Assembly: GCF_036507355.1 (NCBI RefSeq)
Contig: NZ_AP027877.1
Direction: 5' to 3' (one strand)
DNA: 64,000 nt
Source of the DNA: Escherichia coli
Lineage (GTDB): Bacteria; Pseudomonadota; Gammaproteobacteria; Enterobacterales; Enterobacteriaceae
Made by a program: the position numbers and the translations under genes. Below are positions 1 to 51,209 of the stretch, one piece after another; the stretch's first letter is position 1, and every line of letters begins with the position of its first letter. The notes below the pieces were generated by a model. The model made no database searches and was not told the DNA's origin. It worked only from the letters and a program-made list of their open reading frames with translations.

Positions 1-4
1 CAGT

Positions 5-1544: not shown

Positions 1545-1583
1545 AGGTCGGATGCGGCGTGAACGTCTTATCCGGCCTACGCC
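1545..1583. repeat. REP (repetitive extragenic palindromic) element
   Basis: ggtcggatgcggcgtgaacgtcttatccggcctacgcc, classic REP consensus in the yafJ-gmhA intergenic region. Confidence 0.6.
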
Positions 1584-1587
1584 AGAC

Positions 1588-2166: not shown

Positions 2167-2367
2167 GAGGATATCCTTCAGCATAAATGTAATAGACAAA
2201 ATGCAGTGTACCGGATACCGCCAAAAGCGAGAAGTACGGGCAGGTGCTATGACCAGGACTTTTTGACCTGAAGTGCGGATAAAAACAGCAACAATGTGAG
2301 CTTTGTTGTAATTATATTGTAAACACATTGCTAAATGTTTTTACATCCACTACAACCATATCATCAC

Positions 2368-2384
2368 AAGTGGTCAGACCTCCT
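2368..2384 (+). promoter_or_regulatory. FadR operator-like site upstream of fadE
   Basis: aagtggtcagacctcct resembles the FadR box consensus (AnCTGGTCnGACCTGTT), about 20 bp before the fadE start. Confidence 0.5.
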
Positions 2385-2405
2385 ATAAGTAAGGGGCTTT
2401 TCGTT

Positions 2406-4850
2406 ATGATGATTTTGAGTATTCTCGCTACGGTTGTCCTGCTCGGCGCGTTGTTCTATCACCGCGTGAGCTTATTTATCAGCAGTCTGATTTTGCTCGC
2501 CTGGACAGCCGCCCTCGGCGTTGCTGGTCTGTGGTCGGCGTGGGTACTGGTGCCTCTGGCCATTATCCTCGTGCCATTTAACTTTGCGCCTATGCGTAAG
2601 TCGATGATTTCCGCGCCGGTATTTCGCGGTTTCCGTAAGGTGATGCCGCCGATGTCACGCACTGAGAAAGAAGCGATTGATGCGGGCACCACCTGGTGGG
2701 AGGGCGACTTGTTCCAGGGCAAGCCGGACTGGAAAAAGCTGCATAACTATCCGCAGCCGCGCCTGACCGCAGAAGAGCAAGCGTTTCTCGACGGCCCGGT
2801 AGAAGAAGCCTGCCGGATGGCGAATGATTTCCAGATTACTCATGAGCTGGCTGATTTGCCGCCGGAGTTGTGGGCGTACCTTAAAGAGCATCGCTTCTTC
2901 GCGATGATTATCAAAAAAGAGTACGGCGGACTGGAGTTCTCAGCTTATGCCCAGTCTCGCGTGCTGCAAAAACTCTCCGGCGTGAGCGGGATCCTGGCGA
3001 TTACCGTCGGCGTGCCGAACTCATTAGGCCCGGGCGAGCTGCTGCAACATTACGGCACTGACGAGCAGAAAGATCACTATCTGCCGCGTCTGGCGCGTGG
3101 TCAGGAGATCCCTTGCTTTGCACTGACCAGCCCGGAAGCGGGTTCCGATGCGGGCGCGATTCCGGACACCGGGATTGTCTGCATGGGCGAATGGCAGGGC
3201 CAGCAGGTGCTGGGGATGCGTCTGACCTGGAACAAACGCTACATTACGCTGGCACCGATTGCGACCGTGCTTGGGCTGGCGTTTAAACTCTCCGACCCGG
3301 AAAAATTACTCGGCGGTGCAGAAGATTTAGGCATTACCTGTGCGCTGATCCCAACCACCACGCCGGGCGTGGAAATTGGTCGTCGCCACTTCCCGCTGAA
3401 CGTACCGTTCCAGAACGGACCGACGCGCGGTAAAGATGTCTTCGTGCCGATCGATTACATCATCGGCGGGCCGAAAATGGCCGGGCAAGGCTGGCGGATG
3501 CTGGTGGAGTGCCTCTCGGTAGGCCGCGGCATCACACTGCCTTCCAACTCAACCGGCGGCGTGAAATCGGTAGCGCTGGCAACCGGCGCGTATGCTCACA
3601 TTCGCCGTCAGTTCAAAATCTCTATCGGTAAGATGGAAGGGATTGAAGAGCCGCTGGCGCGTATTGCCGGGAACGCTTATGTAATGGATGCTGCGGCATC
3701 GCTGATTACCTACGGCATTATGCTCGGCGAAAAACCTGCCGTGCTGTCGGCTATCGTTAAGTATCACTGTACTCACCGCGGGCAGCAGTCGATTATTGAT
3801 GCGATGGATATCACTGGTGGCAAAGGCATTATGCTCGGGCAAAGCAACTTCCTGGCGCGTGCTTACCAGGGCGCACCGATTGCCATCACCGTTGAAGGGG
3901 CTAACATTCTGACCCGCAGCATGATGATCTTCGGACAAGGAGCGATTCGTTGCCATCCGTACGTGCTGGAAGAGATGGAAGCGGCGAAGAACAATGACGT
4001 TAACGCGTTCGATAAACTGCTGTTCAAACATATCGGTCACGTCGGTAGCAACAAAGTTCGCAGCTTCTGGCTGGGCCTGACGCGCGGTTTAACCAGCAGT
4101 ACGCCAACCGGCGATGCCACTAAACGCTACTATCAGCATCTTAACCGCCTGAGCGCCAACCTCGCCCTGCTTTCTGATGTCTCGATGGCGGTGCTGGGTG
4201 GCAGCCTGAAACGTCGTGAGCGTATCTCGGCACGTCTGGGTGATATTTTAAGCCAGCTTTACCTCGCCTCTGCCGTTCTGAAGCGTTATGACGACGAAGG
4301 CCGTAATGAAGCCGACCTGCCGCTGGTGCACTGGGGTGTACAGGATGCGCTGTATCAGGCAGAACAGGCGATGGACGATTTACTGCAAAACTTCCCGAAC
4401 CGCATGGTTGCCGGGCTGCTGAATGTGGTGATCTTCCCGACCGGACGTCATTATCTGGCACCTTCTGACAAGCTGGATCATAAGGTGGCGAAGATTTTAC
4501 AAGTGCCGAACGCCACCCGTTCACGTATTGGTCGCGGTCAGTACCTGACGCCGAGCGAGCATAATCCGGTTGGTTTACTGGAAGAGGCGTTGGTGGATGT
4601 GATTGCCGCCGACCCGATTCATCAGCGGATCTGTAAAGAGCTGGGTAAAAATCTGCCATTTACCCGTCTGGATGAACTGGCGCACAACGCGCTGGCGAAG
4701 GGGCTGATTGATAAAGATGAAGCCGCTATTCTGGTGAAAGCTGAAGAAAGCCGTCTGCGCAGTATTAACGTTGATGACTTTGATCCGAAAGAGCTGGCGA
4801 CGAAGCCGGTAAAGTTGCCGGAGAAAGTGCGGAAAGTTGAAGCCGCGTAA
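2406..4850 (+). CDS. fadE: acyl-CoA dehydrogenase FadE
   Basis: ORF 2328..4850; real start at [14 protein letters not shown] (814 aa); N-terminal TM segments and acyl-CoA dehydrogenase sequence. Confidence 0.9.
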
Positions 4851-4856
4851 TTGAAT

Positions 4857-4883
4857 AACGGAGCCGAAAGGCTCCGTTTCTTT
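4857..4883. terminator. bidirectional rho-independent terminator between convergent fadE and ivy
   Basis: hairpin aacggagccgaaaggctccgtt followed by tct-rich tract. Confidence 0.55.
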
Positions 4884-4892
4884 ATCCGCTAA

Positions 4893-5366
4893 TTATTTAA
4901 AATTAAAGCCATCCGGATGGTTTTCCAGGCTGCCGGTCAACGCCGCGAACAGCACCGTTTTACCATCAATCGAAAGCGCATCGTTCACATTCAGCCAGGT
5001 GAGTTTCTCTTGCGACGTTTTCTCATCAATAGTCGAGAACAGCCCCGTCATCTGATTAGATTTCTCGGACCACATCACAGCGATACGTTGCGAGCCACAG
5101 TCATGCGGTTTGCACGCGCTCATCACCTGATACGTCTCATCTCCCAACGTTACGGTTTGTGCGGGAGTATAAGTACCGCCTTTCATCACCCATGCAGGTA
5201 GCTTATGCCCTTGCACCATCTGATTAAACGCAGCTTTGGTGGTTTCGCCCTTTGCCAGGCTGCTAATGGTTAAATCATCCTGCGCCATTGCACTGGTGGC
5301 GATGACCAGAGCGGCGACTGTCGTTATTGCCTTAAACATCATTCCTCCCGAGCTTATCCTGCCCAT
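4893..5366 (-). CDS. ivy: inhibitor of vertebrate lysozyme Ivy
   Basis: 157-aa ORF with signal peptide (MGRISSGGMMFKAITTVAALVIATSAMA) and CKPHDC motif. Confidence 0.9.
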   Translation of the reverse strand: MGRISSGGMMFKAITTVAALVIATSAMAQDDLTISSLAKGETTKAAFNQMVQGHKLPAWVMKGGTYTPAQTVTLGDETYQVMSACKPHDCGSQRIAVMWSEKSNQMTGLFSTIDEKTSQEKLTWLNVNDALSIDGKTVLFAALTGSLENHPDGFNFK

Positions 5367-5516: not shown

Positions 5517-6287
5517 ACCGTGCCTGGTTTGAAGATTACGCTTTTGCAGCAACCACTGGTGTGGATGGATGGCCCTGCCAACCTGCGTCATTTTGATCGT
5601 CAACTGGAAGGTATTACCGGGCGCGATGTGATCGTTCTACCGGAGATGTTTACCAGCGGCTTTGCCATGGAAGCGGCTGCTTCGTCGCTAGCACAAGATG
5701 ACGTAGTGAACTGGATGACAGCCAAAGCGCAGCAGTGCAATGCGCTGATTGCAGGCAGTGTTGCATTACAAACGGAGTCTGGTTCGGTTAACCGCTTTTT
5801 GCTGGTTGAGCCGGGCGGCACGGTACATTTTTATGATAAGCGTCATCTGTTCCGCATGGCAGATGAGCATCTGCATTATAAAGCGGGCAATGCGCGAGTG
5901 ATTGTGGAATGGCGCGGCTGGCGTATTTTGCCGTTGGTGTGCTACGACTTACGTTTTCCGGTGTGGTCGCGCAATCTCAACGATTATGACCTCGCCATCT
6001 ACGTTGCCAACTGGCCTGCTCCGCGCTCTCTGCACTGGCAGGCATTGCTGACGGCCCGCGCGATTGAGAATCAGGCGTATGTGGCGGGATGCAATCGCGT
6101 CGGCAGCGATGGCAACGGCTGCCATTATCGCGGTGACAGCCGGGTGATTAATCCACAGGGCGAGATTATCGCTACTGCCGACGCGCATCAGGCAACGCGC
6201 ATTGATGCGGAGCTGTCGATGGCGGTGTTAAGGGGATATCGCGATAAGTTTCCGGCATGGCGGGATGCGGATGAGTTTAGGTTGTAG
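5517..6287 (+). CDS. yafV: carbon-nitrogen hydrolase family protein (omega-amidase) YafV
   Basis: ORF 5511..6287; probable GTG start ([11 protein letters not shown]); nitrilase/CN-hydrolase-like sequence; synteny. Confidence 0.85.
6245..6277 (+). repeat. direct repeat copy 1 (native yafV 3' end), repeated at 8794..8826
   Basis: 28 of 28 identical bases (aagtttccggcatggcgggatgcggatg) plus 4 of 5 following bases are shared with 8794..8826. Confidence 0.8.
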
Positions 6288-6299
6288 TGAGTGGGTGTT

Positions 6300-6530
6300 G
6301 TGTTTAGGGCTGGGGAGAGTCGGGGAAGACTACGAAAGCCCGCTCTCCTGCGACCACTTTTATCATAGGAGTGTGGAAGTGCTTTTCCATCAATCGCGAT
6401 GACGTCTTTGTCATTTGATGAATGGCAGTCACGCATCCAGTTAATAAAGCATTCGTGAAATTATACTGAACGGATACAAGACATAACTCTAATTATGGTG
6501 CCGTGAACAGGATTACCATTTTCAAAATTA
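6300..6530 (-). mobile_element. H-repeat-associated (ISAs1-family) transposase remnant with large internal deletion
   Basis: minus-strand translation gives FENGNPVHGT and [27 protein letters not shown], matching the N-terminal third of YhhI-type H-rpt proteins, joined directly to 3'-end sequence; compare K-12 yafF pseudogene at the same position. Confidence 0.55.
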
Positions 6531-6560
6531 CGATATTATTTGCAGTAATTATGTTATTAA

Positions 6561-7073
6561 TCATTGTGATATTTCCATCTCTGTGATTAATACCGGATAA
6601 GCATTTAATTGCAGAGTTTGCACGAAATTATCGCAGATAACTGGCAATAACAATAACCCATCAGCCCGCTGCTGTAATACCTCCATTCGTTCTACTGATT
6701 CAACATTAACAACCAAACCAAGGGCATTTAGCGATTTAAGGATCTCCAGATGTTCACTCATCCAGCGCAGAGAAAAAGGATCATCACCAATTATAAAAAC
6801 AGGCCCCCAGCCGGTTAATAACTGGCGTTTCATTACGGAGCCAGGATGAAGTCGAGTACATATTACAGGAAATACCCCCTGTTGCGATGGTTCCGATGAT
6901 GTGGATAATTCAGAAATATTTTGCATTGTTAGTGAAGAATTAACATCCATTAATAATGGTGAAACAACCTCACTTTCCTTGCTAGTAATGGCTGCACTAA
7001 TCTGAAAGGAAAATAACAATATTATTACGTATAAACTCATTTTTAACATAACACATTCAATCCGTTTATTCAT
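6561..7073 (-). CDS. hypothetical secreted/membrane-anchored protein (orphan, low GC)
   Basis: 170-aa ORF; hydrophobic N-terminus MLKMSLYVIILLFSFQISA; AT-rich codon usage typical of horizontally acquired cargo; no family recognised. Confidence 0.4.
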   Translation of the reverse strand: MNKRIECVMLKMSLYVIILLFSFQISAAITSKESEVVSPLLMDVNSSLTMQNISELSTSSEPSQQGVFPVICTRLHPGSVMKRQLLTGWGPVFIIGDDPFSLRWMSEHLEILKSLNALGLVVNVESVERMEVLQQRADGLLLLPVICDNFVQTLQLNAYPVLITEMEISQ

Positions 7074-7139
7074 GTTATAGAATAATGATGCTATAAATCA
7101 TCATTAATGTTCAATTATTTAATCACACAATTTAAAAAA

Positions 7140-7571
7140 TCATTGACCAATGTGAATTGGCAATGTACCACTCAAGTTAAAATCACTGAATATTTTATCA
7201 ATTTCTCTTGCAGTTTCTATATATTTAACCTCTTTCGTACTTGCATTATAAATAGCCCAAGCCTCGGAATGGGATGTTTCACCAAACCTTACAAAAAAAC
7301 TTGATTTCATATTATTATATAAATTAACATCAGGAAAAGGATCTTCTCCAAAATTAGTAGTATTGAATAATGAAAGTTCGTATCGCTTAGAAAATTCTAT
7401 TGGTAGGATAGCTTCACTGCCATCAATAGCATTCATCCAGAGTTTGTTACCATTATATTCCAACAATAATCTCTGTTTTGCATGTGTCTTATCTCGTTCT
7501 TTAACGACAGCGAATACCTTTTTAACAACTTGCTGTGCGGATGGTCCTATTGTATTACCAAAAGCTGGCAA
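7140..7571 (-). CDS. hypothetical protein (orphan, low GC)
   Basis: 143-aa ORF between two H-rpt remnants; no family recognised. Confidence 0.35.
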   Translation of the reverse strand: MPAFGNTIGPSAQQVVKKVFAVVKERDKTHAKQRLLLEYNGNKLWMNAIDGSEAILPIEFSKRYELSLFNTTNFGEDPFPDVNLYNNMKSSFFVRFGETSHSEAWAIYNASTKEVKYIETAREIDKIFSDFNLSGTLPIHIGQ

Positions 7572-7871
7572 CCCGATTTTGCCATAAACACTCTCCTAAA
7601 TGAAATAAATATCCGTTTTATCGGCCTCGACAATATCTACCATTTATCCCTCCAAACAAGACCTGACTCCAGGACAAGAGCATAGTGTGTAGTAAACACT
7701 TCATGCTCTTGCCCTGACCATTGAAATAACAACTTTCGTTTGTTTACTGTACGCTGTCTAAATAGCTGCGTGGAATAAAGTTGCACTTTTTATCATCCCT
7801 TGCAGAGCAAGATTACGAAAGCCCGCCCCCGCAAGGACTGACGCGAGGTAGTCTCTGTCCGCAGCTGCTTT

Positions 7872-8635
7872 TCACATCTTACATCTTGCCCCTGCCATGA
7901 GTATCTTATCTTTCGTTAAAATATTAATAGCGATCTTCCGTATCCCTGAAAATAATTCTGCTGCATTTCCTCTTCTTATTTTGAAGTCATCTTTATTCAT
8001 TACCACGTCCAGATGCCAGTGCAATTTATTCTCCACTTGCCAGTGATTTCGGTTCGCTGTGGCGAACTTCTCTGCGGTTAAATCAGCAGAAATGCTATAA
8101 TATCTGACCGTCATTTCGGGATTTTTCTTTTGTTCTGCTATTATTGAGCGAAATGAGACTGCCATGCATAATTTCTTCAGCCCTTTCCATTCAAACGTAA
8201 AATCAATAAATTCATCAGAGACATGCAAACAATATGAAGACGGATTTTAATGACATAAATTGCTCCCTTGTGACGACTCTTGTCATAAGAGTGCCGGAGC
8301 GTTTTTCCATCAATTGCGATGATGTCTTTATCATCTGAAGAATGACAGTCACGCATCCAGTTAATAAAGCACTCGTAAAATTTTGCAGGACTGATACAGG
8401 ATACAACTCTGGCAATGATATCGTGAACAGGAATACCATTTTCAAAATCACCATATCACTTCAAAAAATCGAGATGTGTTTCCCCAAATCCTCTATATCT
8501 TCCCAGCCTTATGCACCAGAAATAACGGCGCAAATAGTTAACAGATAGAATATCTGGCAATTTATGTTCCACTTTCCAGGCTTGCCTGTAATCGGGGATA
8601 ATAGAAATATGTTCCATCAATTTTTTAAGTTCCAT
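7872..8635 (-). mobile_element. H-repeat-associated (ISAs1-family) transposase pseudogene (frameshifted, internally deleted)
   Basis: minus strand encodes [26 protein letters not shown] (H-rpt N-terminus, 8632 downward) and C-terminal [43 protein letters not shown] (ORF 7872..8228); about 760 bp versus about 1.1 kb for an intact copy. Confidence 0.65.
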
Positions 8636-8793
8636 TTTACCCCCCTTAATTATGCAATGAGTATTTGATCATGTATAAGCAATGAAAAACAGCTTTAGGT
8701 AATAAGGAACACCTCAATTATTGAACATAAAATGCGAATTATTTAGTACAAAAAAAGCAGTATTACGTGATTTTTCCCTGGGAGTACAGTGTG

Positions 8794-8826
8794 AAGTTTC
8801 CGGCATGGCGGGATGCGGATGGGTTT
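8794..8826 (+). repeat. direct repeat copy 2 (duplicate of yafV 3' end)
   Basis: aagtttccggcatggcgggatgcggatgggttt matches 6245..6277 with 1 mismatch; would encode ...[10 protein letters not shown], a yafV C-terminal fragment. Confidence 0.8.
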
Positions 8827-8892
8827 GAACTGGGGTGATTAGGCACTACATGTCTACATTTTCCCGGTCACCACCCCCTCAATCTTATGAAC

Positions 8893-10953
8893 TTAACCTC
8901 GGCTCACCGTTTTCGATTCCATCCAATAAATGACCCGGTTGGATGTGGGCTGATCGCCAACAACTTTGCCATCTGCAGAGATTAGCTTCAGCTCTTTATT
9001 AGCCTCATCACCGAAGTAAATCATACGGTAGCGAAAATAACCGCCCCAGGGTTCACGTCCACCCAGCGGACTTTGCATAAACCAGGCGCGGGAGTCGTGA
9101 ACCTGGTCATCATAGAGGGCCAGTAATTCAGCGCATGGCTGAGTACGCGTTCCCGTTCCCAGTGAATCAATAAAAAATTGTGGATAGAGTCCGTCTCCCA
9201 TAGCCTTAATTTGCTGATATTCTTTTGCTTCATCATCGCCATTAATCAGATACACCGGATATTTAGGAATGACATCCACAAGAATCTGAATGGCTTTCTC
9301 CATGACGCTGCCGTTAATATCGCGCGTCCATCCTTTATAATCGCTCTGAAATTCTCGGGCTGCCTCTCGCAACTGATACTGAGCATTGGTTGGGTCAAGG
9401 ATAGGAATGCCCTGATTACTTTCATCAAGTGTGCCATTCCCTTTCTGCTTGTTCGCCCGCTCTTTTTCAATATTTTCCATTTGTTCTTTACGCGCTTTAG
9501 CCTCTTTATCAAGTCCATCTTTATCCAGCTGTGGCGCCTTAATATAAAAAGGTTGCACAAGAAGGCTGTTATTCGCATAGCGACCGATACGCCAGGCGGT
9601 GATCCAGCCGATCTGATCGCTAATTGCGCTTTCAAGAACCTGGGCAAGTTGATAGGAGTGATAACCTTCCCTCGTATCAATCATTTCTTCTGTACCCTGC
9701 AAGGTGGTGTTCAGCAGCGTTTGTCGCCAGATGTTGAAGCGTTTTGTTAATGAATTAGCAATCGTAAATTCCTTTACACTAGAAGGACTCATAATTCGCA
9801 GAGGCGACACACCTTTTATTAATGGAGTAACAAATTTAGAATAAACAGCAAGTGGTGCTCCTGAATCAAATGCAGCAAGATACATATCATGCAGTGCTAT
9901 CTGAGAAAGAATTTCGCCTGAGTCACCACAGGACTTCCCCTGATCGCGAACGGGATAGCCACCACCGACATCAGAGTGCATCCCCGGATAGATAATTTCC
10001 TCTGCATTTAAAGGATAATTTCCGTCTGGACGACGGATTGAATCCAGCGGAAAGCACAGCCGCTGCTCATGCGCGGCAACGAAGTGGCGGCAGCATTTAA
10101 TCAGGCCGGGAAACTGCCTCTCATCAGGGAGTTGCTGAGTACTATCGGCCCATCCCATATGACCGGCAGCGCCCGGTAAAACATGCGCCGCCCCCACAGA
10201 AGCTACGGTATCCAGCAGCCCCAAAAACTCAATACTGACAGCTAACCCGGCCAGCATCACCTGTTGCTCCTGCGGGCAAGCTAACTGAGTCAACCAGTTA
10301 ACAAAAGTTCGTGCTTCCGCTGCGCCACGGGAAAATCCGTAGATAAACAGCTTTACGTTTAGCAGGCGCGGACTGGCTTGCTCTAACAGTCCCTGTAATT
10401 TTTCCAGGTAGGGGTTAATCACATTGCGACGATTCACTTCACCAGTCATAGGCCAGGGAGCGCGCATAAGAGGAATGTGCTCTTTTGCCACATTATCATC
10501 CAGTCGCTTATGGGAAGGGTCAATGGAATAGCTCAGGGCATCCACGAGGCGTAATAATGCCCAATTAATTCGATCTTCACCACCAGTAGCGAACTCCAGC
10601 CCGCTGTTGCTGTAATCCATTTCACCTATCTTGGGAAATGGTGTGCCTACACCCGGTATATAGTAGTTAAAATATCCCTGTTCTTCTGCGTTCTGATAGG
10701 TCGTATGAAACAGTTTGGCAATATTGGTTGGGTGTCCAGGAGTGTCATTATATTCATTATTATTTGTACCATCAAAAAACAGACTAATATGCAGACTTTG
10801 ATTACACGTAAAGCCAATTCTAAATCCAGCCTGTTTACTACAGTTGGTTTTGTGCTCTTCTGTTTTATTGATTTGTTTTAGGTAGTTCGCGTTTACCTGC
10901 GCTTCAGATAATATTAATCGCCCATCTTCAGGGAACACCGGGGGGCATAACAC
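8893..10953 (-). CDS. T6SS phospholipase effector, Tle-type (DUF2235-like alpha/beta hydrolase)
   Basis: 686-aa ORF; N-terminal LHISLFFDGTNNN motif and GxSxG lipase motif (IYGFSRGAAEA) characteristic of DUF2235/Tle1-like effectors; sits after a vgrG remnant and adaptor-like gene. Confidence 0.7.
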   Translation of the reverse strand: MLCPPVFPEDGRLILSEAQVNANYLKQINKTEEHKTNCSKQAGFRIGFTCNQSLHISLFFDGTNNNEYNDTPGHPTNIAKLFHTTYQNAEEQGYFNYYIPGVGTPFPKIGEMDYSNSGLEFATGGEDRINWALLRLVDALSYSIDPSHKRLDDNVAKEHIPLMRAPWPMTGEVNRRNVINPYLEKLQGLLEQASPRLLNVKLFIYGFSRGAAEARTFVNWLTQLACPQEQQVMLAGLAVSIEFLGLLDTVASVGAAHVLPGAAGHMGWADSTQQLPDERQFPGLIKCCRHFVAAHEQRLCFPLDSIRRPDGNYPLNAEEIIYPGMHSDVGGGYPVRDQGKSCGDSGEILSQIALHDMYLAAFDSGAPLAVYSKFVTPLIKGVSPLRIMSPSSVKEFTIANSLTKRFNIWRQTLLNTTLQGTEEMIDTREGYHSYQLAQVLESAISDQIGWITAWRIGRYANNSLLVQPFYIKAPQLDKDGLDKEAKARKEQMENIEKERANKQKGNGTLDESNQGIPILDPTNAQYQLREAAREFQSDYKGWTRDINGSVMEKAIQILVDVIPKYPVYLINGDDEAKEYQQIKAMGDGLYPQFFIDSLGTGTRTQPCAELLALYDDQVHDSRAWFMQSPLGGREPWGGYFRYRMIYFGDEANKELKLISADGKVVGDQPTSNRVIYWMESKTVSRG

Positions 10954-11298
10954 GGAAAAGCCAGACCACTTATTTTGCTGGACATGTTGCTGGTTCTTTT
11001 ACTTTGAGAGATTTTAATTGATGGGTATTGTTTCTACGACAATAAAGTTTTGACAAAGAAGCAAATAAAATGCATATCTTTCGATTGTCACACATTGGAA
11101 TATCGACAGAGCATTGATGATATTACGCAAAATATATTGCAGCCAAGTGAACTGACATTACGATCGAACACAAATGCAACATGATGGATACTACCATTAC
11201 ATGTCGAGCTTGATTTTCCGTTTATTTCACGATTATCTCTTGATATTAACAGCTACGGACTTTTAAACAGATAAATCTCCCCGTACATCACCACAATA

Positions 11299-12069
11299 TT
11301 ATCCTTCGAAGTCCCGCAAAGCTCCGAAATATTTCGCGTCATTGGCTCTGAAAGCAATATCAAGACAGTGGGCAAAATAGCTTTCCTGACTGAGTTCACT
11401 GACTGCTTTCTCCTTCATCAGGACTTCAGCGTCGCAGATACAGCCCATCAATCCCACCTGTACATCATCCACCCGATTCATCTCCGGGTTGTCAGTAAGC
11501 CTGCGTTCTGGTGAAAAACTTCCTGATTTCCAGTTAATCTCACCATCACGGTCTAACCAGCTCCAGAACAACGCAATATCAGTAAATGTCGCCTGCTGCT
11601 CGTTAGTCAAAACATGTGTGAACAGTAAAGGGAACACCCGATTATCATAGTAACGCAGCAATCCGGTCTGTTCTTCCCACTGAACCTGTGACAATACCTG
11701 AAGATGCCGCCCCAGCAGGTCGAATGTAAGAGGGGATATCAACAAAGTAAGACGCGGCGTATCAGCAAATGACGCCATCAGTTGTGCCAGAAATTTGCGA
11801 TGGCTACTGAGCGCAAAGTACAGGCGTAACACTACAGGGGAATACTCCATCGTCTCAGCTTCAGGCGTTCCTTCAAACAGGGCATACCAGTGAATGGCTG
11901 GCGACAGATGAAGCATATCATTTTGCAAAGGTTGGTCGGTTCCAGCCTGGTCAACAAGCACATCTATGTAATCCAAACCAGCGGCAGAACAGAATGATTC
12001 AGCTTGCTTCAGCCAGATAATATATTTGTCTTGATCGGTAGCGTGTGGCGATACTGTTATCATTGTCAT
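11299..12069 (-). CDS. putative T6SS effector adaptor/chaperone (DUF4123-like, assigned by position)
   Basis: 256-aa ORF starting 6 nt after the vgrG-remnant stop (GGGAGA spacer acts as RBS) and preceding the Tle gene; the vgrG-DUF4123-lipase order is the canonical arrangement; domain not verified. Confidence 0.45.
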   Translation of the reverse strand: MTMITVSPHATDQDKYIIWLKQAESFCSAAGLDYIDVLVDQAGTDQPLQNDMLHLSPAIHWYALFEGTPEAETMEYSPVVLRLYFALSSHRKFLAQLMASFADTPRLTLLISPLTFDLLGRHLQVLSQVQWEEQTGLLRYYDNRVFPLLFTHVLTNEQQATFTDIALFWSWLDRDGEINWKSGSFSPERRLTDNPEMNRVDDVQVGLMGCICDAEVLMKEKAVSELSQESYFAHCLDIAFRANDAKYFGALRDFEG

Positions 12070-12075
12070 TCTCCC

Positions 12076-12470
12076 TTATCCACGAGGCGCAAAAACGGCG
12101 GCGGCTTCTTGCGCCCTTTTCAGGCACTCCTTACACACCGATTTTTCTGGCGCTTCCTCACCCTCATCGTTGTTATCATTCTGATCGGACGATGCATTAC
12201 TATCATTTTGCTCAGCCGCTAAACTTTTATCATCTGCCAGCGCTTTCAGAACCGCCGGTTGCAGCGTCGGCACCGGCGTTCCCGGACTACCGCCGCTATT
12301 GAGATTGATTTTCGGCCCGACGATGTCCACGCTCCCTGAATGGATGACCACAAACGAGCCGCCCACCTTCAGGCTTATCCGGCTGCTGCTCTCCAGCACC
12401 ACATCGCCCTCCACCTTTAACCACGCCACCGCAGTCAATGGCATCACCGGTTCTGGCGGTAGGTTTATCG
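12076..12470 (-). pseudogene. vgrG 3' remnant (second copy, DUF2345-like C-terminal region only)
   Basis: translation VEGDVVLESSSRISLKVGGSFVVIHSGSVDIVGPKINLNSGGSPGTPV is near-identical to the C-terminal region of the vgrG at 15531..17237; no upstream gp27/gp5 part. Confidence 0.75.
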
Positions 12471-12652
12471 TCGATAAAGGCGAAAGAGGTGTTTCCGGCT
12501 CTTAAGAAATATTTACGCACATGCACCAGCATTACAGAAAATAAAACCTGCGATACATTTTAATCAATAAGGTTGCTTTACCAAGCTTCCATCGATATTG
12601 ATGGAAAATTCATTAGACCTAATATGAACAGAATGTTGCTCATCATCTTTAT

Positions 12653-13339
12653 CTAATATTTGATTAACAAAAAAAACGTATTTTTATCAAATTCATAATT
12701 ATCACATCCCTCTCCACTAAATGATATAGCTCTAAAATCATATTCATTACATGAGTATCTTTTCATCAAAATAGAGAGGAATGTTTCATTAATTGATTTT
12801 AATACAAACCATTTTCTCCTAACAAGTTTGTAGTTTAATGTTTTTATATGATAATTATTTAAACTGGGGAGAAATGAATGCATATCATTCAATTTTACAT
12901 CAAAATATATTTTTTTACCTGCCGTAATTTCCACCCATCGGCTCAAATTCAAATCAAGCTCAAAGGGACAAAAGCCTCCTAGATAGTCTAAGCTAATATT
13001 TCCTGATGTAATCAAGAATTCGTCATCACACAAAGCATCAAATACATCTCCATTTCCTTTTTGGAAGTTCTTTGGATAATATATTCTGGGGAGAAAATAC
13101 GATTTAGTACTACTGTTATAAAAAGTTATAGTGGCTAAAATATTTTCAGCATGTGGCTTAACCACCAATTTAACAACAACATCATTTGTTAATTCATTAC
13201 TTATATTTTCCTCTGGCGCTAAATTATGGCTAAGATAAATAATTGGTTTCCCATTGTCACTTCTTCGTTCAAAACCGAATCTGTATTTTTTTACAAAAAG
13301 ATTCTCATTATCTATTGCAATTGCAATAGATAATGGCAA
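12653..13339 (-). CDS. hypothetical protein, candidate immunity protein for the upstream HExxH protein
   Basis: 228-aa low-GC ORF immediately downstream of the vgrG-coupled gene; start uncertain (the ORF-track start corresponds to a TTG codon); no family recognised. Confidence 0.35.
   Translation of the reverse strand: MPLSIAIAIDNENLFVKKYRFGFERRSDNGKPIIYLSHNLAPEENISNELTNDVVVKLVVKPHAENILATITFYNSSTKSYFLPRIYYPKNFQKGNGDVFDALCDDEFLITSGNISLDYLGGFCPFELDLNLSRWVEITAGKKIYFDVKLNDMHSFLPSLNNYHIKTLNYKLVRRKWFVLKSINETFLSILMKRYSCNEYDFRAISFSGEGCDNYEFDKNTFFLLIKY
13305..13336. repeat. 32-bp perfect palindrome
   Basis: ccattatctattgcaattgcaatagataatgg is its own reverse complement; overlaps the first codons of the 12653..13339 ORF. 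Confidence 0.85.
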
Positions 13340-13512
13340 AAAACAAAGAAAAAAACCATCAGTACAACATAATTTAGATTATAGAAAGCCAACCTCTTCA
13401 TCTTATTTCCCCGTCAACTCATCAAAACATTTTTCTATCTCTTTTATTTTATCCTCTACTTTTTTTGCTAACATATTCTCATCTTGAGCTTCAATATCTT
13501 CATTATTTAATT

Positions 13513-14205
13513 TTATATAAAATATCTTTCAACATTATATGCATTCTCAAATAACTGATCTTTACGCAATGTAACCAGATCATTAGCCACTGAAACATGT
13601 TTCTCATAGCTAACTTCATCCTTATTACTTGTTGCGAACTTATTAATACCCGTATAATCCTGAGTCCACATACCACCTTTTTGATTGTCACCCCAATACC
13701 AAAATATATGGGACATTTCATGGCAAAGTGTACTTACATGAGAGTCTCTACCTGTAACCGACTGTTTTATACCATGTCTGTATTCAAAATGCGCTCCGAT
13801 ATTTACAATGTAAGGAGGATCAAGATGTGGACTAATAAAAGCAGCAAATTCATTGCAGTTCGTATAATCTTTATAGCTTTCGATCGTCAAACCATTTGCA
13901 ATCGTCATTATTCGTCTGATGCCATCCATTATGAATAGTCTCGCTTGCATTCGTTTCCCAGTATCTTCCCCAACCTTTCTGATTTTTATAATGTCCTCGC
14001 CTTTAAGGCCAAAAACTTTAATAAAATCTCGTTGTTGCTCCCCCTCCCATGACATAATATCATCTGCTCTTTTCAATAAAACCATTTTCTGTGCTTTACA
14101 AGCCTTACTCATCATTATTTTAAATTTATTTGTAATTTTTTGCGGTACTACACATACTTGCGACTCGGGTTGTGAAGTCCCACTAGTATTATTATTCCCT
14201 GCCAT
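13513..14205 (-). CDS. putative T6SS cargo effector with HExxH motif (Zn-metallopeptidase-like candidate)
   Basis: 231 aa from MAGNNNTSGT (ORF-track start further upstream is IS-derived read-through); RBS GGAGGGG; start codon overlaps the reconstructed vgrG stop (ATGGCAGGGAATAA); HEMSH motif near the C-terminus; low GC. Confidence 0.45.
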   Translation of the reverse strand: MAGNNNTSGTSQPESQVCVVPQKITNKFKIMMSKACKAQKMVLLKRADDIMSWEGEQQRDFIKVFGLKGEDIIKIRKVGEDTGKRMQARLFIMDGIRRIMTIANGLTIESYKDYTNCNEFAAFISPHLDPPYIVNIGAHFEYRHGIKQSVTGRDSHVSTLCHEMSHIFWYWGDNQKGGMWTQDYTGINKFATSNKDEVSYEKHVSVANDLVTLRKDQLFENAYNVERYFI

Positions 14206-14349
14206 AATGCCCCTCCGGCTCAATATAAAAAGCATCCGAAAATAACAATTGGACTTTAATTTCCTGTGCTGTATCTGTATAAAAGTGAGGTAGCCTGAGT
14301 TTAACGGACACTCCTTCCTGAAATAGAATGGCATCAGAAGGAGCTAATA

Positions 14350-14652
14350 ATGAGCAGAAAAACCCAACGTTACTCTAAAGAGTTCAAAGCCGAAGCTGTC
14401 AGAACGGTTCTTGAAAATCAACTTTCGATCAGTGAAGGCGCTTCCCGATTATCTCTTCCTGAAGGCACTTTAGGACAATGGGTTACCGCCGCCAGAAAAG
14501 GGCTCGGTACTCCTGGTTCCCGCACGGTGGCTGAACTGGAATCTGAAATTCTGCAACTGCGTAAGGCGTTAAATGAAGCTCGCCTTGAGCGAGATATATT
14601 AAAAAAAGCAACAGCGTATTTTGCACAGGAGTCGCTGAAAAATACGCGTTAA
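14350..14652 (+). CDS. IS3-family transposase OrfA (HTH)
   Basis: 100-aa ORF MSRKTQRYSKEFKAEAVRTV... with leucine-zipper-like C-terminus. Confidence 0.85.
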   Translation: MSRKTQRYSKEFKAEAVRTVLENQLSISEGASRLSLPEGTLGQWVTAARKGLGTPGSRTVAELESEILQLRKALNEARLERDILKKATAYFAQESLKNTR

Positions 14653-14687
14653 TCGAACAATGGCGACAACAATTTCCCATTGAAGCG

Positions 14688-15506
14688 ATGTGTCAGGTAT
14701 TTGGTGTATCCAGGAGCGGTTATTACAACTGGGTACAGCATGAACCCTCAGACAGAAAACAAAGTGATGAGCGGCTAAAACTGGAGATTAAGGTGGCACA
14801 TATCCGCACTCGCGAAACATATGGAACCCGGCGGCTCCAGACGGAGCTGGCAGAGAATGGCATCATCGTTGGTCGTGACCGACTGGCACGTCTTCGTAAG
14901 GAGCTAAGGCTACGCTGTAAGCAGAAACGCAAGTTCAGAGCGACTACGAACTCGAACCACAATCTGCCAGTTGCGCCAAATCTGCTGAACCAGACGTTCG
15001 CTCCTACAGCACCAAATCAGGTCTGGGTGGCGGACCTGACGTATGTTGCCACACAGGAGGGATGGTTGTACCTCGCTGGCATCAAAGATGTTTATACGTG
15101 CGAAATTGTCGGCTACGCCATGGGAGAGCGCATGACAAAAGAGCTGACAGGTAAAGCCCTGTTTATGGCGCTCAGGAGCCAGCGCCCACCTGCCGGGCTA
15201 ATCCACCACTCTGATCGAGGTTCACAGTACTGCGCATACGATTACCGGGTCATACAGGAGCAGTTTGGTCTGAAAACATCAATGTCGCGTAAAGGTAACT
15301 GTTACGACAACGCTCCGATGGAAAGCTTCTGGGGAACGCTGAAAAATGAGAGCCTGAGCCACTATCGTTTTAATAACCGGGATGAAGCCATCTCAGTAAT
15401 ACGGGAATACATTGAGATTTTCTACAATCGTCAGCGTCGTCACTCTCGTCTGGGGAATATCTCCCCGGCAGCCTTCAGGGAAAAATATCATCAGATGGCT
15501 GCTTAA
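14688..15506 (+). CDS. IS3-family transposase OrfB (DDE integrase core; probably made as an OrfAB frameshift fusion)
   Basis: 272-aa ORF with DLTYV...HHSDRGSQY...SRKGNCYDNAPMESFW DDE signature. Confidence 0.85.
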   Translation: MCQVFGVSRSGYYNWVQHEPSDRKQSDERLKLEIKVAHIRTRETYGTRRLQTELAENGIIVGRDRLARLRKELRLRCKQKRKFRATTNSNHNLPVAPNLLNQTFAPTAPNQVWVADLTYVATQEGWLYLAGIKDVYTCEIVGYAMGERMTKELTGKALFMALRSQRPPAGLIHHSDRGSQYCAYDYRVIQEQFGLKTSMSRKGNCYDNAPMESFWGTLKNESLSHYRFNNRDEAISVIREYIEIFYNRQRRHSRLGNISPAAFREKYHQMAA

Positions 15507-15530
15507 AAAAAGAATAAATGGTAGTGTCCG

Positions 15531-17237
15531 CTATTGCCAGTACACCTCAAATATTTCTGTATATCCCTCTCTGTCTGTTTCACCACGCGTCTGTGTGCCA
15601 TCCTCAAAAAAGGCAATATACTGCGTCTCTGAATACGGTATCCCGTCATCGTCCGTAAAATGGAACTGGAGGGTATATTTTTCAGGATCATCTTCATCGT
15701 CACCGCCATCACCTCCTCCGTCACTCCCTGCGGGATTGCCACTATCCTCTCCGGAGTCATCACTGCCATCATCACTGCTCTCATCCTCCGGAGCCTCCAG
15801 CACCGCCGGCTGCATCGTCCCCACCGGTGTCCCCGCACTGCCCCCACCGTTCAGGTTTATCTTCGGCCCGGCAATATCCACTCCGCCCGGCTGAATGACG
15901 ATAAACGAGCCACCCACCTTCAGGCTTATCCGGCTGCTGCTCTCCAGCACGATATCCCCGTCCACTTTTATCCCCAGCGCGCCACTCACCTTCTCCGCCA
16001 GGTCCCCCTTCACCACCAGGCTGTGTTTCCCCTCCACCAGACTGATATGGTTCCCCGTCGTCTTATGCTCCTGCTTCCCTTCCACCGTCACTTTACGGTC
16101 GTTTCTGACGTACAGACCGTCATCGTGACTCACGCTCACCGTCCGGTCATTCGTCACCTTCAGAGTCTGGTCATTACGTACCGTGATACGCCGGTCGTTC
16201 GCCACCGTGATACTCTGGTCGTGGCCCCCCTCTTTTTTTGTACCGACCTGAACCGTCTGACCCTTCACCACCGTTATCTTCTGGTCGTTACCGATGGTTT
16301 CCGTATGGTCATGTTTTACATCCGTTGTCCGGTCGTTGAGCACCTCCGTATCCATGTTCTTCTGCGCATGGATATACACCTGCTCATTACTGGTGGCGTC
16401 TTCAAACCGCAGCTCGTTAAATCCGCTTCCTTTATAGGTTTTTGACCGTATCGTCATCTGCGTCTTCGTTCCCGGCAGGTCGCCCGGGGAGCGGTTGTCC
16501 TCATGGTACGTCCGCCCCATGATTATCGGCTGGTCCGGGTCTCCGTTCAGAAAATCAACAATCACCTCCTGGCCCACCCGCGGTATCGCCAGATTACCGA
16601 ACCCCGGCCCCGCCCACGCCTGCGATACCCGCACCCAGCATGAACTCGCCTCCGTCATCCCGTGATAACGGTCCCAGTGGAACTTCACCCGTACCCGGCC
16701 ATGTTCATCGCAGAAGATTTCCTCTCCCGCAGGCCCGGTGACAATGGCACTCTGCGGCCCGTCCACCTTCGGTTTGCTTTGCAGCCGTGGACGCCACGTC
16801 CGGTCCGCCGGTATCACCTCTAACTGATTTCCCAGCGTGGTTCCTCTCCCTTGGCTGCCGTGCAGCGCCTGCGGCTGGCTTCCTGACAGTATGCTCTGTA
16901 CCACCTGCCATTCACGGTTCAGCATCTTCTGCGGATGCCCCGTCAGCGTAAACCGCGTTCCCGGCCACAGCCTCGGCGAATTACTCTGCCCTGTGGCCTT
17001 TTCCGCATCACTGCGCAGGCTCTCCATCTGGTACAGCGTGAAATCCTTGCCGTGCTGCTCATCCTTGAACCTTCCCGGATAATCAAATATTTCATACTGC
17101 GCCAGCTGTCCGTTCAGGTTCTCACCCTGCTGCTCATACATCCCCGGCCAGTCCGGCACCTTAAACGTGTAATCCTGGCTCTGCACCGACGACGGGCGGA
17201 CATGCGCCTCATACGCTACCGCCCGGGTTTCCGGCAT
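15531..17237 (-). pseudogene. vgrG: vgrG (T6SS spike) lacking the N-terminal ~220 aa and interrupted 33 codons before its stop by IS600-like copy 1
   Basis: 568-aa ORF with gp5-like OB-fold motif (GPAGEEIFCDEHGRVRVKFHWDRY) only ~165 aa from its start, repeated VxxNDR beta-helix segments, DUF2345-like region, acidic Gly/Asp linker and a short C-terminal domain; the last residues EVYWQ are encoded by the IS terminus. Confidence 0.8.
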
Positions 17238-18559: not shown

Positions 18560-18718
18560 ATGAGCAAAATGAACAACAATGGCGGCAGTGTCGCGCCGAA
18601 AGAAAGAATCAGCGTTCGGTATACACCAAAAGTTGATGGGGTGGCTGCTGATATCGAATTGCCGCTGAATTTATTGATCACCGGCAATCTGAAAGGGAAA
18701 CCAGATAACACGCCGTGA
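18560..18718 (+). pseudogene. tssB: tssB (T6SS sheath small subunit) 5' stub, 52 codons, truncated by an IS3-family element
   Basis: MSKMNNNGGSVAPKERISVRYTPKVDGVAADIELPLNLLITGNLKGKPDNTP matches the conserved TssB/VipA N-terminus; the stop codon TGA is the first three bases of the IS inverted repeat. Confidence 0.65.
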
Positions 18719-18772
18719 ATCGCCACGGGTTTAACAGACACCTCAGAGTCATTTAAGATGGCTTAAAGAGAG

Positions 18773-19057
18773 GTGCCCATGAGCGGTAAGCGTTATCCCG
18801 AAGAGTTTAAAATTGAAGCAGTCAAACAGGTTGTTGATCGCGGTTATTCTGTTGCCAGCGTTGCAACACGTCTCGATATCACCACCCACAGCCTTTACGC
18901 CTGGATAAAGAAGTACGGTCCGGATTCTTCCGCTAATAAAGAACAGTCAGATGCTCAGGCCGAGATCCGCCGTCTCCAGAAAGAGCTGAAGCGGGTTACC
19001 GACGAACGGGACATATTAAAAAAAGCCGCGGCGTACTTCGCAAAGCTGTCCGACTGA
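18773..19057 (+). CDS. IS3-family transposase OrfA
   Basis: 94-aa ORF MPMSGKRYPEEFKIEAVKQVVDRGYSVASVATRL... (HTH plus leucine zipper). Confidence 0.85.
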   Translation: MPMSGKRYPEEFKIEAVKQVVDRGYSVASVATRLDITTHSLYAWIKKYGPDSSANKEQSDAQAEIRRLQKELKRVTDERDILKKAAAYFAKLSD

Positions 19058-19113
19058 GGTACGCCTTTATCCGTGACAACACCTGTTGCTGGCCTGTTCG
19101 CCTGCTCTGTCGG

Positions 19114-19926
19114 GTGCTGGATGTTCATCCCAGTGGTTTTTACGCCTGGCTTCAGCAGCCGCATTCACAACGCCATCAGGCAGACCTGAGGCTGACAGGG
19201 CAGATTAAACAGTTCTGGCTGGAATCGGGATGCGTCTATGGTTATCGCAAAATCCATCTGGATCTGCGGGACAGCGGGCAACAGTGCGGAGTGAACAGAG
19301 TCTGGCGACTGATGAAACGTGTCGGGATAAAGGCTCAGGTCGGATACCGGAGCCCGCGGGCACGTAAAGGCGAGGCCAGTATCGTGTCGCCCAACAGGCT
19401 CCAGCGACAGTTCAATCCGGATGCTCCGGATAAGCGTTGGGTAACGGACATAACCTACATCAGGACCCACGAAGGCTGGCTGTATCTTGCCGTGGTTGTT
19501 GATCTGTTCTCACGCAAAATTATCGGCTGGTCCATGCAATCCCGGATGACAAAGGACATTGTCCTGAACGCACTGCTGATGGCTGTATGGCGCCGTAATC
19601 CCCAAAAACAGGTGCTGGTTCATTCGGATCAGGGCAGTCAGTACACAAGCCATGAGTGGCAGTCGTTCCTGAAATCACACGGCCTGGATGGCAGCATGAG
19701 CCGTCGCGGTAACTGCCATGATAATGCGGTTGCAGAAAGCTTTTTCCAGTTGTTGAAACGCGAACGGATAAAGAAAAAGATCTACGGAACGCGGGAAGAA
19801 GCCCGCAGCGATATTTTTGATTACATCGAAATGTTTTATAACAGTAAGCGTCGGCATGGTTCCAGCGATCAGATGTCACCGACAGAATATGAAAACCAGT
19901 ATTATCAACGGCTCGGAAGTGTCTAG
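19114..19926 (+). CDS. IS3-family transposase OrfB (DDE)
   Basis: 270-aa ORF with DITYIRTHEGWLYLAVVVDLFSRK...HSDQGSQYTS...SRRGNCHDNAVAESFF DDE signature. Confidence 0.85.
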   Translation: MLDVHPSGFYAWLQQPHSQRHQADLRLTGQIKQFWLESGCVYGYRKIHLDLRDSGQQCGVNRVWRLMKRVGIKAQVGYRSPRARKGEASIVSPNRLQRQFNPDAPDKRWVTDITYIRTHEGWLYLAVVVDLFSRKIIGWSMQSRMTKDIVLNALLMAVWRRNPQKQVLVHSDQGSQYTSHEWQSFLKSHGLDGSMSRRGNCHDNAVAESFFQLLKRERIKKKIYGTREEARSDIFDYIEMFYNSKRRHGSSDQMSPTEYENQYYQRLGSV

Positions 19927-50390: not shown

Positions 50391-51209
50391 TTAAGCAGCC
50401 ATCTGATGATATTTTTCCCTGAAGGCTGCCGGGGAGATATTCCCCAGACGAGAGTGACGACGCTGACGATTGTAGAAAATCTCAATGTATTCCCGTATTA
50501 CTGAGATGGCTTCATCCCGGTTATTAAAACGATAGTGGCTCAGGCTCTCATTTTTCAGCGTTCCCCAGAAGCTTTCCATCGGAGCGTTGTCGTAACAGTT
50601 ACCTTTACGCGACATTGATGTTTTCAGACCAAACTGCTCCTGTATGACCCGGTAATCGTATGCGCAGTACTGTGAACCTCGATCAGAGTGGTGGATTAGC
50701 CCGACAGGTGGGCGCTGGCTCCTGAGCGCCATAAACAGGGCTTTACCTGTCAGCTCTTTTGTCATGCGCTCTCCCATGGCGTAGCCGACAATTTCGCACG
50801 TATAAACATCTTTGATGCCAGCGAGGTACAACCATCCCTCCTGTGTGGCAACATACGTCAGGTCCGCCACCCAGACCTGATTTGGTGCTGTAGGAGCGAA
50901 CGTCTGGTTCAGCAGATTTGGCGCAACTGGCAGATTGTGGTTCGAGTTCGTAGTCGCTCTGAACTTGCGTTTCTGCTTACAGCGTAGCCTTAGCTCCTTA
51001 CGAAGACGTGCCAGTCGGTCACGACCAACGATGATGCCATTCTCTGCCAGCTCCGTCTGGAGCCGCCGGGTTCCATATGTTTCGCGAGTGCGGATATGTG
51101 CCACCTTAATCTCCAGTTTTAGCCGCTCATCACTTTGTTTTCTGTCTGAGGGTTCATGCTGTACCCAGTTGTAATAACCGCTCCTGGATACACCAAATAC
51201 CTGACACAT
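50391..51209 (-). CDS. IS3-family transposase OrfB (DDE)
   Basis: 272-aa ORF, identical to 14688..15506 except one residue. Confidence 0.85.
   Translation of the reverse strand: MCQVFGVSRSGYYNWVQHEPSDRKQSDERLKLEIKVAHIRTRETYGTRRLQTELAENGIIVGRDRLARLRKELRLRCKQKRKFRATTNSNHNLPVAPNLLNQTFAPTAPNQVWVADLTYVATQEGWLYLAGIKDVYTCEIVGYAMGERMTKELTGKALFMALRSQRPPVGLIHHSDRGSQYCAYDYRVIQEQFGLKTSMSRKGNCYDNAPMESFWGTLKNESLSHYRFNNRDEAISVIREYIEIFYNRQRRHSRLGNISPAAFREKYHQMAA

Follow-up and report, generated by a model that had tools for sequence, protein, structure and literature searches.

A probable decaying remnant of the Tle1 cargo operon in an Escherichia coli T6SS-1 locus without tli1a immunity genes

Results

The region described here lies within a window of 64 kb, which is the whole stretch of E. 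coli DNA that was analyzed. Its minus strand carries the body of a tle1 gene (8893..10953), a 686-aa ORF that can be read only from the GTG at 10953 and corresponds to a Tle1-family phospholipase effector of the T6SS. Pfam searches matched the 686-aa sequence to PF09994 (1.4e-13 and 1.7e-08) and PF22137 (5.8e-56), and its homology with Tle1 of Pseudomonas aeruginosa (PDB 4O5P, E = 1e-116) extends over nearly the full length, so that both a Tle1-like catalytic domain and a Tle1-like C-terminal (membrane-anchoring) domain were found. The catalytic triad is complete: Ser208 lies in GFSRG, Asp248 in LLDTVA, and His326 in HSDVGGGY, in the alignment columns of S197, D245, and H310 of the enteroaggregative E. 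coli (EAEC) Tle1 (6SJL), and these residues also align with P. aeruginosa Tle1. On the basis of its domains and triad, the protein is predicted to be a Tle1 phospholipase. This agrees with the initial annotation, which described a DUF2235/GxSxG lipase and proposed that inactivating substitutions of the catalytic Ser, Asp, or His be looked for; the alignment revealed none.

The gene tla1 (11299..12069, minus strand) encodes a 256-aa DUF4123 adaptor/chaperone for Tle1. The profile search that had been recommended for this DUF4123-like ORF supported the assignment, with a score of 221.5 bits for the NCBIfam equivalog NF053803 (cutoff 200) and a match to Pfam DUF4123 (PF13503, 3.5e-15); judged from its sequence, tla1 is apparently intact. 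The ATG of tla1 (12069) is preceded, as previously noted, by 6 nt and the stop codon (TAA, 12078-12076) of a vgrG tail. This tail is an ORF at 12076..12447 (minus strand) in which the vgrG homology runs from 12420 to 12079. The remnant (12076..12420, minus strand) thus covers the 3′-terminal 114 codons of vgrG, which correspond to residues 630-743 in a VgrG of 743 aa, and lacks the N-terminus. It shares 95% identity with the same residues of the VgrG encoded at locus L002, the type whose gene lies ahead of tla1 in other E. coli; in relatives it is annotated as a partial VgrG pseudogene. It represents the last β-helix turns and the cargo-specific C-terminal tail; the gp27-like hub, OB fold, and gp5 β-helix set was not found in it, and in the full-length homologue all Pfam VgrG domains end before residue 622. 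The initial annotation was therefore correct in recognizing a vgrG remnant at this position, but the homology spans 114 codons and not the 130 proposed. Nor is the tail nearly identical to the other vgrG of the window, as had been stated: the two agree at 78% of positions across 60 aa (80% across 173 nt), and the final 54 aa have no counterpart there. A DUF2345 region was likewise not supported: PF10106 fell on residues 633-665 of the full-length homologue only with E = 2.

On the other side of tle1, between 8636 and 8892, we found no ORF longer than 35 aa, and none with a signal peptide or a lipobox, which agrees with the earlier statement that no immunity gene adjoins the lipase. A 50-bp duplicate of the 3′ end of yafV (repeat D2, 8794..8843, 82% identical to 6246-6295) marks an old island boundary just downstream of tle1, and ISAs1 (H-repeat) remnants are also present downstream; both had been noticed in the initial annotation.

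The spacer between tla1 and tle1 (10954..11298, minus strand) measures 345 bp with 35% GC, matching the AT-rich gap previously described, and occupies the slot in which relatives carry one to three tli1a (DUF3304) immunity genes. In each of the 12 related E. coli loci inspected, tli1a is located between tla1 and tle1, that is, upstream of tle1, with three copies in L008 and L015, two plus a pseudogene in L002 and L009, two in L007 and L013, and one in L001, L006, L010, L011, and L012. The same arrangement was reported for the P. aeruginosa cluster PA3294-PA3290, where the immunity genes also lie upstream of tle1, between tla1 and tle1, and where Tli1a, encoded upstream of tle1, is an outer-membrane lipoprotein that protects sister cells (PMC13133936). 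The comparison with intact Tle loci suggested by the initial annotation thus identified the expected family as Tli1a, with DUF3304, in the tla1-tle1 slot, contrary to its expectation of an immunity gene directly downstream of the phospholipase.

In the window, a DUF3304 lipoprotein gene upstream of tle1 is missing, and nothing is left of it but a tail of 11 codons and a degenerate relic. When four Tli1a/DUF3304 proteins were compared by tblastn with the whole 64-kb window, no significant match was obtained; the only signals were the stub of the C-terminal tail (10973-11005) and sub-threshold noise. The relic is a decayed tli1a 3′ end (approximately 10970-11119) that contains stop codons, lacks a signal peptide, and matches Tli1a across 58 aa at 31% (E = 0.07), with KEPATCPAK and a stop at its end. 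The sequence GAACCAGCAACATGTCCAGCAAAATAAG (10969..10996, minus strand) is a 28-bp deletion junction that specifies the conserved C-terminal tail of Tli1a (EPATCPAK and a stop) and includes the tle1 ATG. In relatives, one copy of this 28-bp repeat is found on either side of the tli1a gene or genes, the two being identical at 27 of 28 positions in L001. Positions 8001-10996 and 10969-13000 of the window map to 8378-11373 and 11885-13916 of L001, respectively, and the 539 bp by which the window is shorter are a whole tli1a gene (the L001 copy of Tli1a scores 211 bits on NF053804) lying exactly between the direct repeats. The loss of the immunity gene, one of the two options in the initial annotation, was in this way corroborated. 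From these alignments, we read the 345-bp AT-rich spacer as the scar left where the immunity array was lost.

Among 5,426 complete E. coli genomes, we found no contiguous instance of the tli1a-less junction; it is present in two other assemblies from different sources, GCA_905398585.1 (NCBI) and ERR3330519 (Logan). L003 is identical to the window over 11,360 bp, L004 shows one mismatch, and the junction is common to both.

The native start of tle1 (10914..10985, minus strand) is also altered. Its ATG at 10985 now opens an ORF of only 23 codons (MSSKISGLAFPCYAPRCSLKMGD followed by a stop), because the C tract at 10940-10945 contains six residues (C6) instead of the seven (C7) of the in-frame alleles, a loss of 1 nt. 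From the native ATG, the C7 allele encodes a 697-aa Tle1, a form present on at least 1000 contigs; the window has no intact frame from this codon. The initial annotation missed this uncoupling of tle1 from its ATG, which is revealed by comparing the frame with the C7 alleles. Beyond the 5′ frameshift the 686-aa ORF is open throughout, and PGAP calls this form a gene in one relative; the GTG at 10953 that the long ORF needs has no obvious Shine-Dalgarno sequence. We infer that tle1 is not expressed in the window; the toxin is probably barely translated, and some Tle1 may be expressed from the GTG. A promoter and terminator scan of 8600-12700 gave 11 predictions, with 7.5 ± 2.9 expected from shuffling, and hence no excess.

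An 85-nt query covering the tle1 start region gave a single match in each of the 69 complete E. coli genomes bearing tle1, and a DUF3304 gene lies beneath it in the 12 matches listed. The exact C7 haplotype occurs in 55 of these genomes and the exact C6 haplotype in 4. The sampled C6 lineages are the window, L001, L012, and L015, all four with a broken cognate vgrG, and C6 arose independently at least twice, once in L001 (whose sister haplotype L011 is C7) and once in the GGTG haplotype shared by L012, L015, and the window. When metagenomes were scanned for the start region, a single contig was returned, which was C7 and carried a tli1a tail upstream.

The neighboring genes are also damaged. 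A newer cargo module (12653..14334, minus strand) is located between the vgrG in the active position and the vgrG remnant. It includes an M35-like metallopeptidase (13513..14334, minus strand), so named by PGAP in relatives and matching Aspzincin_M35 only at E = 0.0023, and, downstream of it, a signal-peptide protein (12653..13339 plus upstream sequence, minus strand) whose 5′ end is frameshifted in the window. The active-position vgrG and its insertion span 14286..17237 (minus strand): an IS600 (14286-15549, plus strand) occupies the 3′ end of vgrG (15550..17237), which has also lost its first ~206 codons (residues 1-206) through a 739-bp deletion. Of tssB, only codons 1-52 remain (18560..18715, plus strand), cut by an IS3-family element (approximately 18716-19945), and neither tssC nor tssE gave a match within the 64-kb window. 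Window genes near tle1 carry a nonsense mutation or a frameshift as well. The window therefore has no functional T6SS core, and the suspicion in the initial annotation that this T6SS is dead was well founded.

Discussion

The region belongs to a system that is already known and is in late decay: its genes have decayed in an ordinary way within a secretion system that is dead, and no new system is involved. Very probably, the region is what remains, displaced and in decay, of vgrG-tla1-tli1a(n)-tle1, the standard cargo operon of the E. coli T6SS-1. The hcp-vgrG-tla1-tli1a(x1-3)-tle1 operon next to yafV in ECO20, NGF1, and NC101 has the same chromosomal site and genes as the window, with Tle1 about 98% and VgrG residues 630-743 95% identical, and the same ISAs1, ICE-protein, and hypothetical genes downstream; in comparison, the window has no tli1a, only 114 vgrG codons, C6 in place of C7, and no T6SS core. 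The gene order also resembles that of vgrG4a-tla1-tli1b-tli1a-tle1 in P. aeruginosa, with immunity genes upstream of tle1 (PMC13133936). The window Tla1 scores above the cutoff of the NCBIfam equivalog that was built on that system, whereas E. coli Tle1 has 697 residues versus 884 in the 4O5P chain, and the window is without the immunity genes and a functional VgrG. The EAEC Sci-1 Tle1-Tli1 pair (PDB 6SJL/6SKI) shares the DUF2235 core, and the GFSRG Ser, DTVA Asp, and HSDxGGGY His align, but its Tle1 is distant from that of the window (E about 6e-07 over about 135 residues). In the Sci-1 system, Tle1 attaches directly to VgrG, no DUF4123 adaptor being involved, and the immunity protein is of a different family. 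As in the displaced effector-immunity modules found behind vgrG, rhs, or cdiA (for example, the immunity arrays of Vibrio cholerae), a vgrG-M35 module has taken the active position, and the older module persists with nothing of its carrier gene but the 3′ tip. Classically, it is the immunity gene that survives as an orphan; in contrast, the window keeps the toxin ORF and has lost the immunity gene.

Reconstructed by comparison with relatives, the history that links the genes, deletion junction, frameshift, and IS truncations observed in the window would be as follows. A second vgrG-M35 peptidase module would have taken up a place upstream, and the Tle1-type vgrG would have been cut to its last 114 codons. 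The tandem tli1a array would then have shrunk: every tli1a ends in the same ~28-bp tail, which holds the ATG of the next gene, and a relic copy of the tail precedes the array, so that recombination or slippage between tails could remove tli1a copies in register. The last such event would have taken 539 bp and left no immunity gene, a C7 to C6 slip would have shifted the tle1 body into a frame other than that of its ATG, and IS600, IS3-family elements, and deletions would have wrecked the neighboring vgrG and the T6SS core. The order rests on a dozen sampled loci, possibly recombinant mosaics, and sets array shrinkage, the last deletion, the C6 slip, and the IS damage in no sequence among themselves. 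P. aeruginosa Tle1 is toxic only in the periplasm and harmless in the cytoplasm (PMC13133936). The loss of immunity would be tolerated because no sister cell can fire Tle1, because cytoplasmic Tle1 does no harm, and because the toxin is probably barely translated; that a toxin outlives its immunity gene is plausible only because the T6SS machine is dead.

Other explanations were weighed against this decay of a known operon. Many E. coli have more than one T6SS, and the triad, the long tle1 ORF, and tla1 are intact; Tle1 might then still be in use: translation would begin at GTG 10953, or C7 would be restored, and Tla1 would load the protein onto another VgrG or T6SS encoded outside the window, with protection from a tli1a copy elsewhere in the genome. 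We consider this unlikely, given that the GTG lacks an obvious Shine-Dalgarno sequence, that the local T6SS is destroyed, and that the tle1-bearing complete genomes show a single start-region match, with DUF3304 beneath it where listed. Moreover, P. aeruginosa Tla1 loads the lipase on the spike by binding Tle1 as well as the extension at the C-terminus of the cognate VgrG (PMC13133936), and in the window this recruiting tail exists only on the 114-codon fragment. The repeated origin of C6 could instead indicate that the C tract in codons 13-15 of tle1 serves as a phase-variable contingency switch and that immunity was lost in an OFF clone, but seven nucleotides are few for slippage to be efficient, C6 is rare, and it was sampled only where the cognate vgrG was already broken, which fits relaxed selection better and makes such a switch very improbable. 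Equally doubtful is a broader version, in which OFF is reversible and OFF clones shed the tli1a array free of cost ('disarmed but re-armable'), or Tle1 is deployed through a T6SS with immunity supplied in trans from elsewhere.

The initial annotation had placed a possible immunity gene among the orphan ORFs downstream of tle1, at 6561..7073 and 7140..7571. The former is on the same strand as tle1 and has an N-terminal signal-like hydrophobic segment, but TIGR03765 (2e-35) places it in the PFL_4695 integrating-conjugative-element family; the latter is a hypothetical gene without a signal peptide, properly a 167-codon gene at 7143..7643 interrupted by an internal stop in the window. Both are part of a low-GC insert of 2.5 kb that is flanked by remnants of ISAs1 and by yafV-end repeats, and both co-occur unchanged with tli1a in all relatives, so we rejected them as immunity genes and regard that role as extremely improbable. 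Collapse of a tandem repeat during assembly, conceivable given the tli1a arrays of relatives, is hardly credible as the origin of the gap, because the two independent assemblies carry the identical junction; in addition, the two Tli1a types are only ~54% identical at the protein level, and zero copies remain instead of one.

The decay of the T6SS-1 cargo operon thus remains the favored reading, and it bears on how such loci are interpreted. At Tle1/Tla1 loci, the place to look for immunity genes is upstream of the toxin and not downstream, and a toxin gene whose ORF is open and whose catalytic residues are intact can nevertheless be a pseudogene if a homopolymer at its start has slipped by 1 nt. 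The repeated tail/start junction of the tli1a array is a ready substrate for the in-register loss of all immunity copies, and the lineage of the window is predicted to be sensitive to Tle1-armed E. coli. The locus offers a small, clean example of a toxin-immunity module eroding once its delivery machine is gone.

Organization of the locus and identity of its products

The window comes from an E. coli/Shigella-type chromosome, and along it dpaA, yafJ, lpcA, fadE, ivy, yafV and a 2.5-kb low-GC insert are followed by tle1, tla1, a vgrG 3′ remnant, an M35-peptidase module, IS600, a truncated vgrG, hcp, a tssB stub, an IS3-family element and a CP4-like island. As described in the initial annotation, the vgrG tail ends 6 nt before a 256-aa ORF (11299..12069, minus strand), and a 345-bp AT-rich gap, with a measured GC content of 35%, separates this ORF from one of 686 aa (8893..10953, minus strand). 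The proposal that the latter encodes a Tle-type lipase was borne out, since the protein matched both Pfam Tle1 domains (PF09994 and PF22137) and aligned over nearly its full length with P. aeruginosa Tle1 (PDB 4O5P, E = 1e-116). The catalytic residues, for which substitutions had been considered, are present: counting along the alignment, S208 (GFSRG), D248 (LLDTVA) and H326 (HSDVGGGY) occupy the columns of the triad S197, D245 and H310 of EAEC Tle1 (6SJL), and these columns also hold the equivalent P. aeruginosa residues.

A profile search identified the 256-aa protein as the adaptor Tla1 (NCBIfam NF053803, 221.5 bits, cutoff 200; DUF4123, 3.5e-15), as anticipated. The supposed 130-codon vgrG tail is indeed a vgrG remnant, but it is homologous (95% identity) only to residues 630-743 of a 743-aa VgrG whose gene stands before tla1 in other E. 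coli. It is not nearly identical to the other vgrG of the window, with which it shares 78% identity over 60 residues only, the last 54 being unmatched, and the DUF2345 label was not upheld, reaching only E = 2 on the full-length homologue. Because all significant VgrG Pfam domains of this homologue stop before residue 622, the remnant comprises the last beta-helix turns and the cargo-specific tail. In P. aeruginosa, this tail region recruits Tla1 and Tle1 (PMC13133936).

Position and copy number of tli1a in related loci

The immunity gene had been expected downstream of the lipase gene; however, in 12/12 related E. coli loci the genes encoding Tli1a, a DUF3304 lipoprotein, lie upstream, between tla1 and tle1. 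The same placement is found in the P. aeruginosa cluster vgrG4a-tla1-tli1b-tli1a-tle1, where Tli1a binds Tle1 and is located in the outer membrane (PMC13133936). Three copies are present in N96 and MFDS1022581, two plus a frameshifted one in ECO20 and NGF1, two in FDAARGOS_943 (one split by IS1) and FDAARGOS_944, and one in 23CRST031, A30, EC2641, PapRG-04-4 and 32F4. A tli1a tail relic precedes the array in every relative. Within arrays, each tli1a stop overlaps the start of the next gene by 16 nt (ATGTCCAGCAAAATAA), and for this reason Tle1, like every Tli1a, begins with the codons MSSKI or MSIKI.

Two Tli1a types (~54% identical) were distinguished, both occurring in the arrays of loci L002 (10590-12149), L008 (N96, 6366-7974) and L007 (6366-7417). 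Since single-copy relatives keep one type or the other, array contraction seems to have occurred more than once and by different routes, with the window at the zero-copy end point. In N96 (1-5245), a full-length Tle1-type vgrG interrupted by an internal stop comes immediately after a vgrG-M35-transposase-PAAR module, and tla1, three tli1a copies and tle1 come next; this arrangement is presumably an intermediate state.

Loss of tli1a from the window

The loss was mapped by comparison with 23CRST031 (L001), the complete genome closest to the window. Positions 8001-10996 of the window correspond to L001 8378-11373, and 10969-13000 to 11885-13916, so that 539 bp with the entire tli1a gene are missing, and a 28-bp sequence (10969..10996, minus strand) is common to both flanks. 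The C-terminus conserved in Tli1a (EPATCPAK*) is encoded by this 28-mer, which also contains the ATG of the next gene; the two copies of the 28-mer in L001 are 27/28 identical. The immunity array would have been excised via its own junction repeats. The 345-bp spacer is a tli1a relic alone, a degenerate 3′ end that is interrupted by stops, terminates in KEPATCPAK* and shows 31% identity over 58 aa. When four Tli1a proteins were used as tblastn queries, no further copy was detected in the 64-kb window, in agreement with the earlier suggestion that the immunity gene was lost.

An assembly artefact was rejected as the origin of the junction, since it is carried by the NCBI draft contig GCA_905398585.1 (100% identical to the window over 11,360 bp) and by the Logan assembly of ERR3330519 (one mismatch in 3,663 bp). 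The junction was found in 0/5,426 complete E. coli genomes, and the two halves of a probe spanning it were never contiguous in the 69 that matched the probe.

Other places proposed for an immunity gene did not yield one. Nothing is encoded in 8636-8892; the ORF at 6561..7073 encodes a PFL_4695 ICE-family protein, and the second candidate (7140..7571 as proposed; 7143..7643 here), a 167-codon hypothetical gene, is a pseudogene in the window with a premature internal stop. Both coexist with tli1a in relatives. These two genes lie in the insert (6296-8793; 29-41% GC), which lies between two direct copies of a 50-bp stretch from the yafV 3′ end (6246-6295 and 8794-8843), holds two ISAs1 remnants that share a 200-nt repeat at 80% identity and is found in all related tle1 loci.

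Start of tle1 and decay of the neighboring genes

In most relatives, tle1 begins at an ATG inside the tli1a tail and its product has 697 aa (MSSKISGLAFPCYAPPVFPEDGRL...). In the window, the C tract at 10940-10945 is C6 instead of C7, and consequently the ATG ORF stops at 23 codons; the long ORF can be entered solely at GTG 10953, upstream of which there is no purine-rich Shine-Dalgarno sequence. The 697-aa form occurs on at least 1000 contigs and the 686-aa form on one. Among 69 complete genomes with tle1, the exact C7 haplotype was present in 55 and the exact C6 haplotype in four. C6 arose at least two separate times; 23CRST031 has C6 and A30 C7 within an identical flanking haplotype. In each of the four inspected lineages with C6, the cognate vgrG is already a remnant or IS-split, a state that fits relaxed selection better than a switch.

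The T6SS machinery has likewise been lost. The IS3-family element (about 18716-19945) cuts tssB (from 18560) after codon 52, and tssC and tssE had no match within the window. Relative to 23CRST031, a 739-bp deletion (17212-17213) removed the first ~206 codons of the other vgrG together with some of the hcp-vgrG spacer; IS600 (14286-15549), inserted ~90 bp before the stop of this vgrG, parts its 3′ end from the M35 gene. Among the T6SS genes examined, hcp alone is intact (100% conserved relative to 23CRST031).

At 12653-14334 (minus strand), the M35-like metallopeptidase gene (Aspzincin_M35, weak, E = 0.0023) overlaps the upstream vgrG end in relatives and is followed there by a gene for a signal-peptide protein of ~250-280 aa; the two resemble an effector and its immunity partner. 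The latter protein has lost its N-terminus and signal peptide in the window through a T-run frameshift near 13380. Past the IS3-family element that cuts tssB lies a CP4-like island beside tRNA-Asp, with GTPase and YeeU/CbtA-type genes in relatives; this layout points to IS-mediated deletion of the ~25-kb T6SS core. A second IS3-family orfB (50391..51209) equals that of the IS600 copy in length. With IS3 and the ISAs1 remnants added, the window has a high IS load that recalls Shigella or EIEC-like genomes.

Tolerance of the immunity loss

Tle1 is toxic when targeted to the periplasm and harmless in the cytoplasm, and immunity deletion in an active background was reported to need tle1 co-deletion (PMC13133936). 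Immunity is required solely when sister cells inject Tle1. Less probably, there is residual expression from GTG 10953, or a trans-acting immunity gene or another T6SS beyond the 64-kb window. We consider that tli1a loss costs nothing here, because the T6SS and the cognate spike are gone and tle1 is frameshifted at its start codon. The initial annotation correctly singled out this feature, though an ordinary one: the locus is a known Tle1/Tla1 module in late decay.
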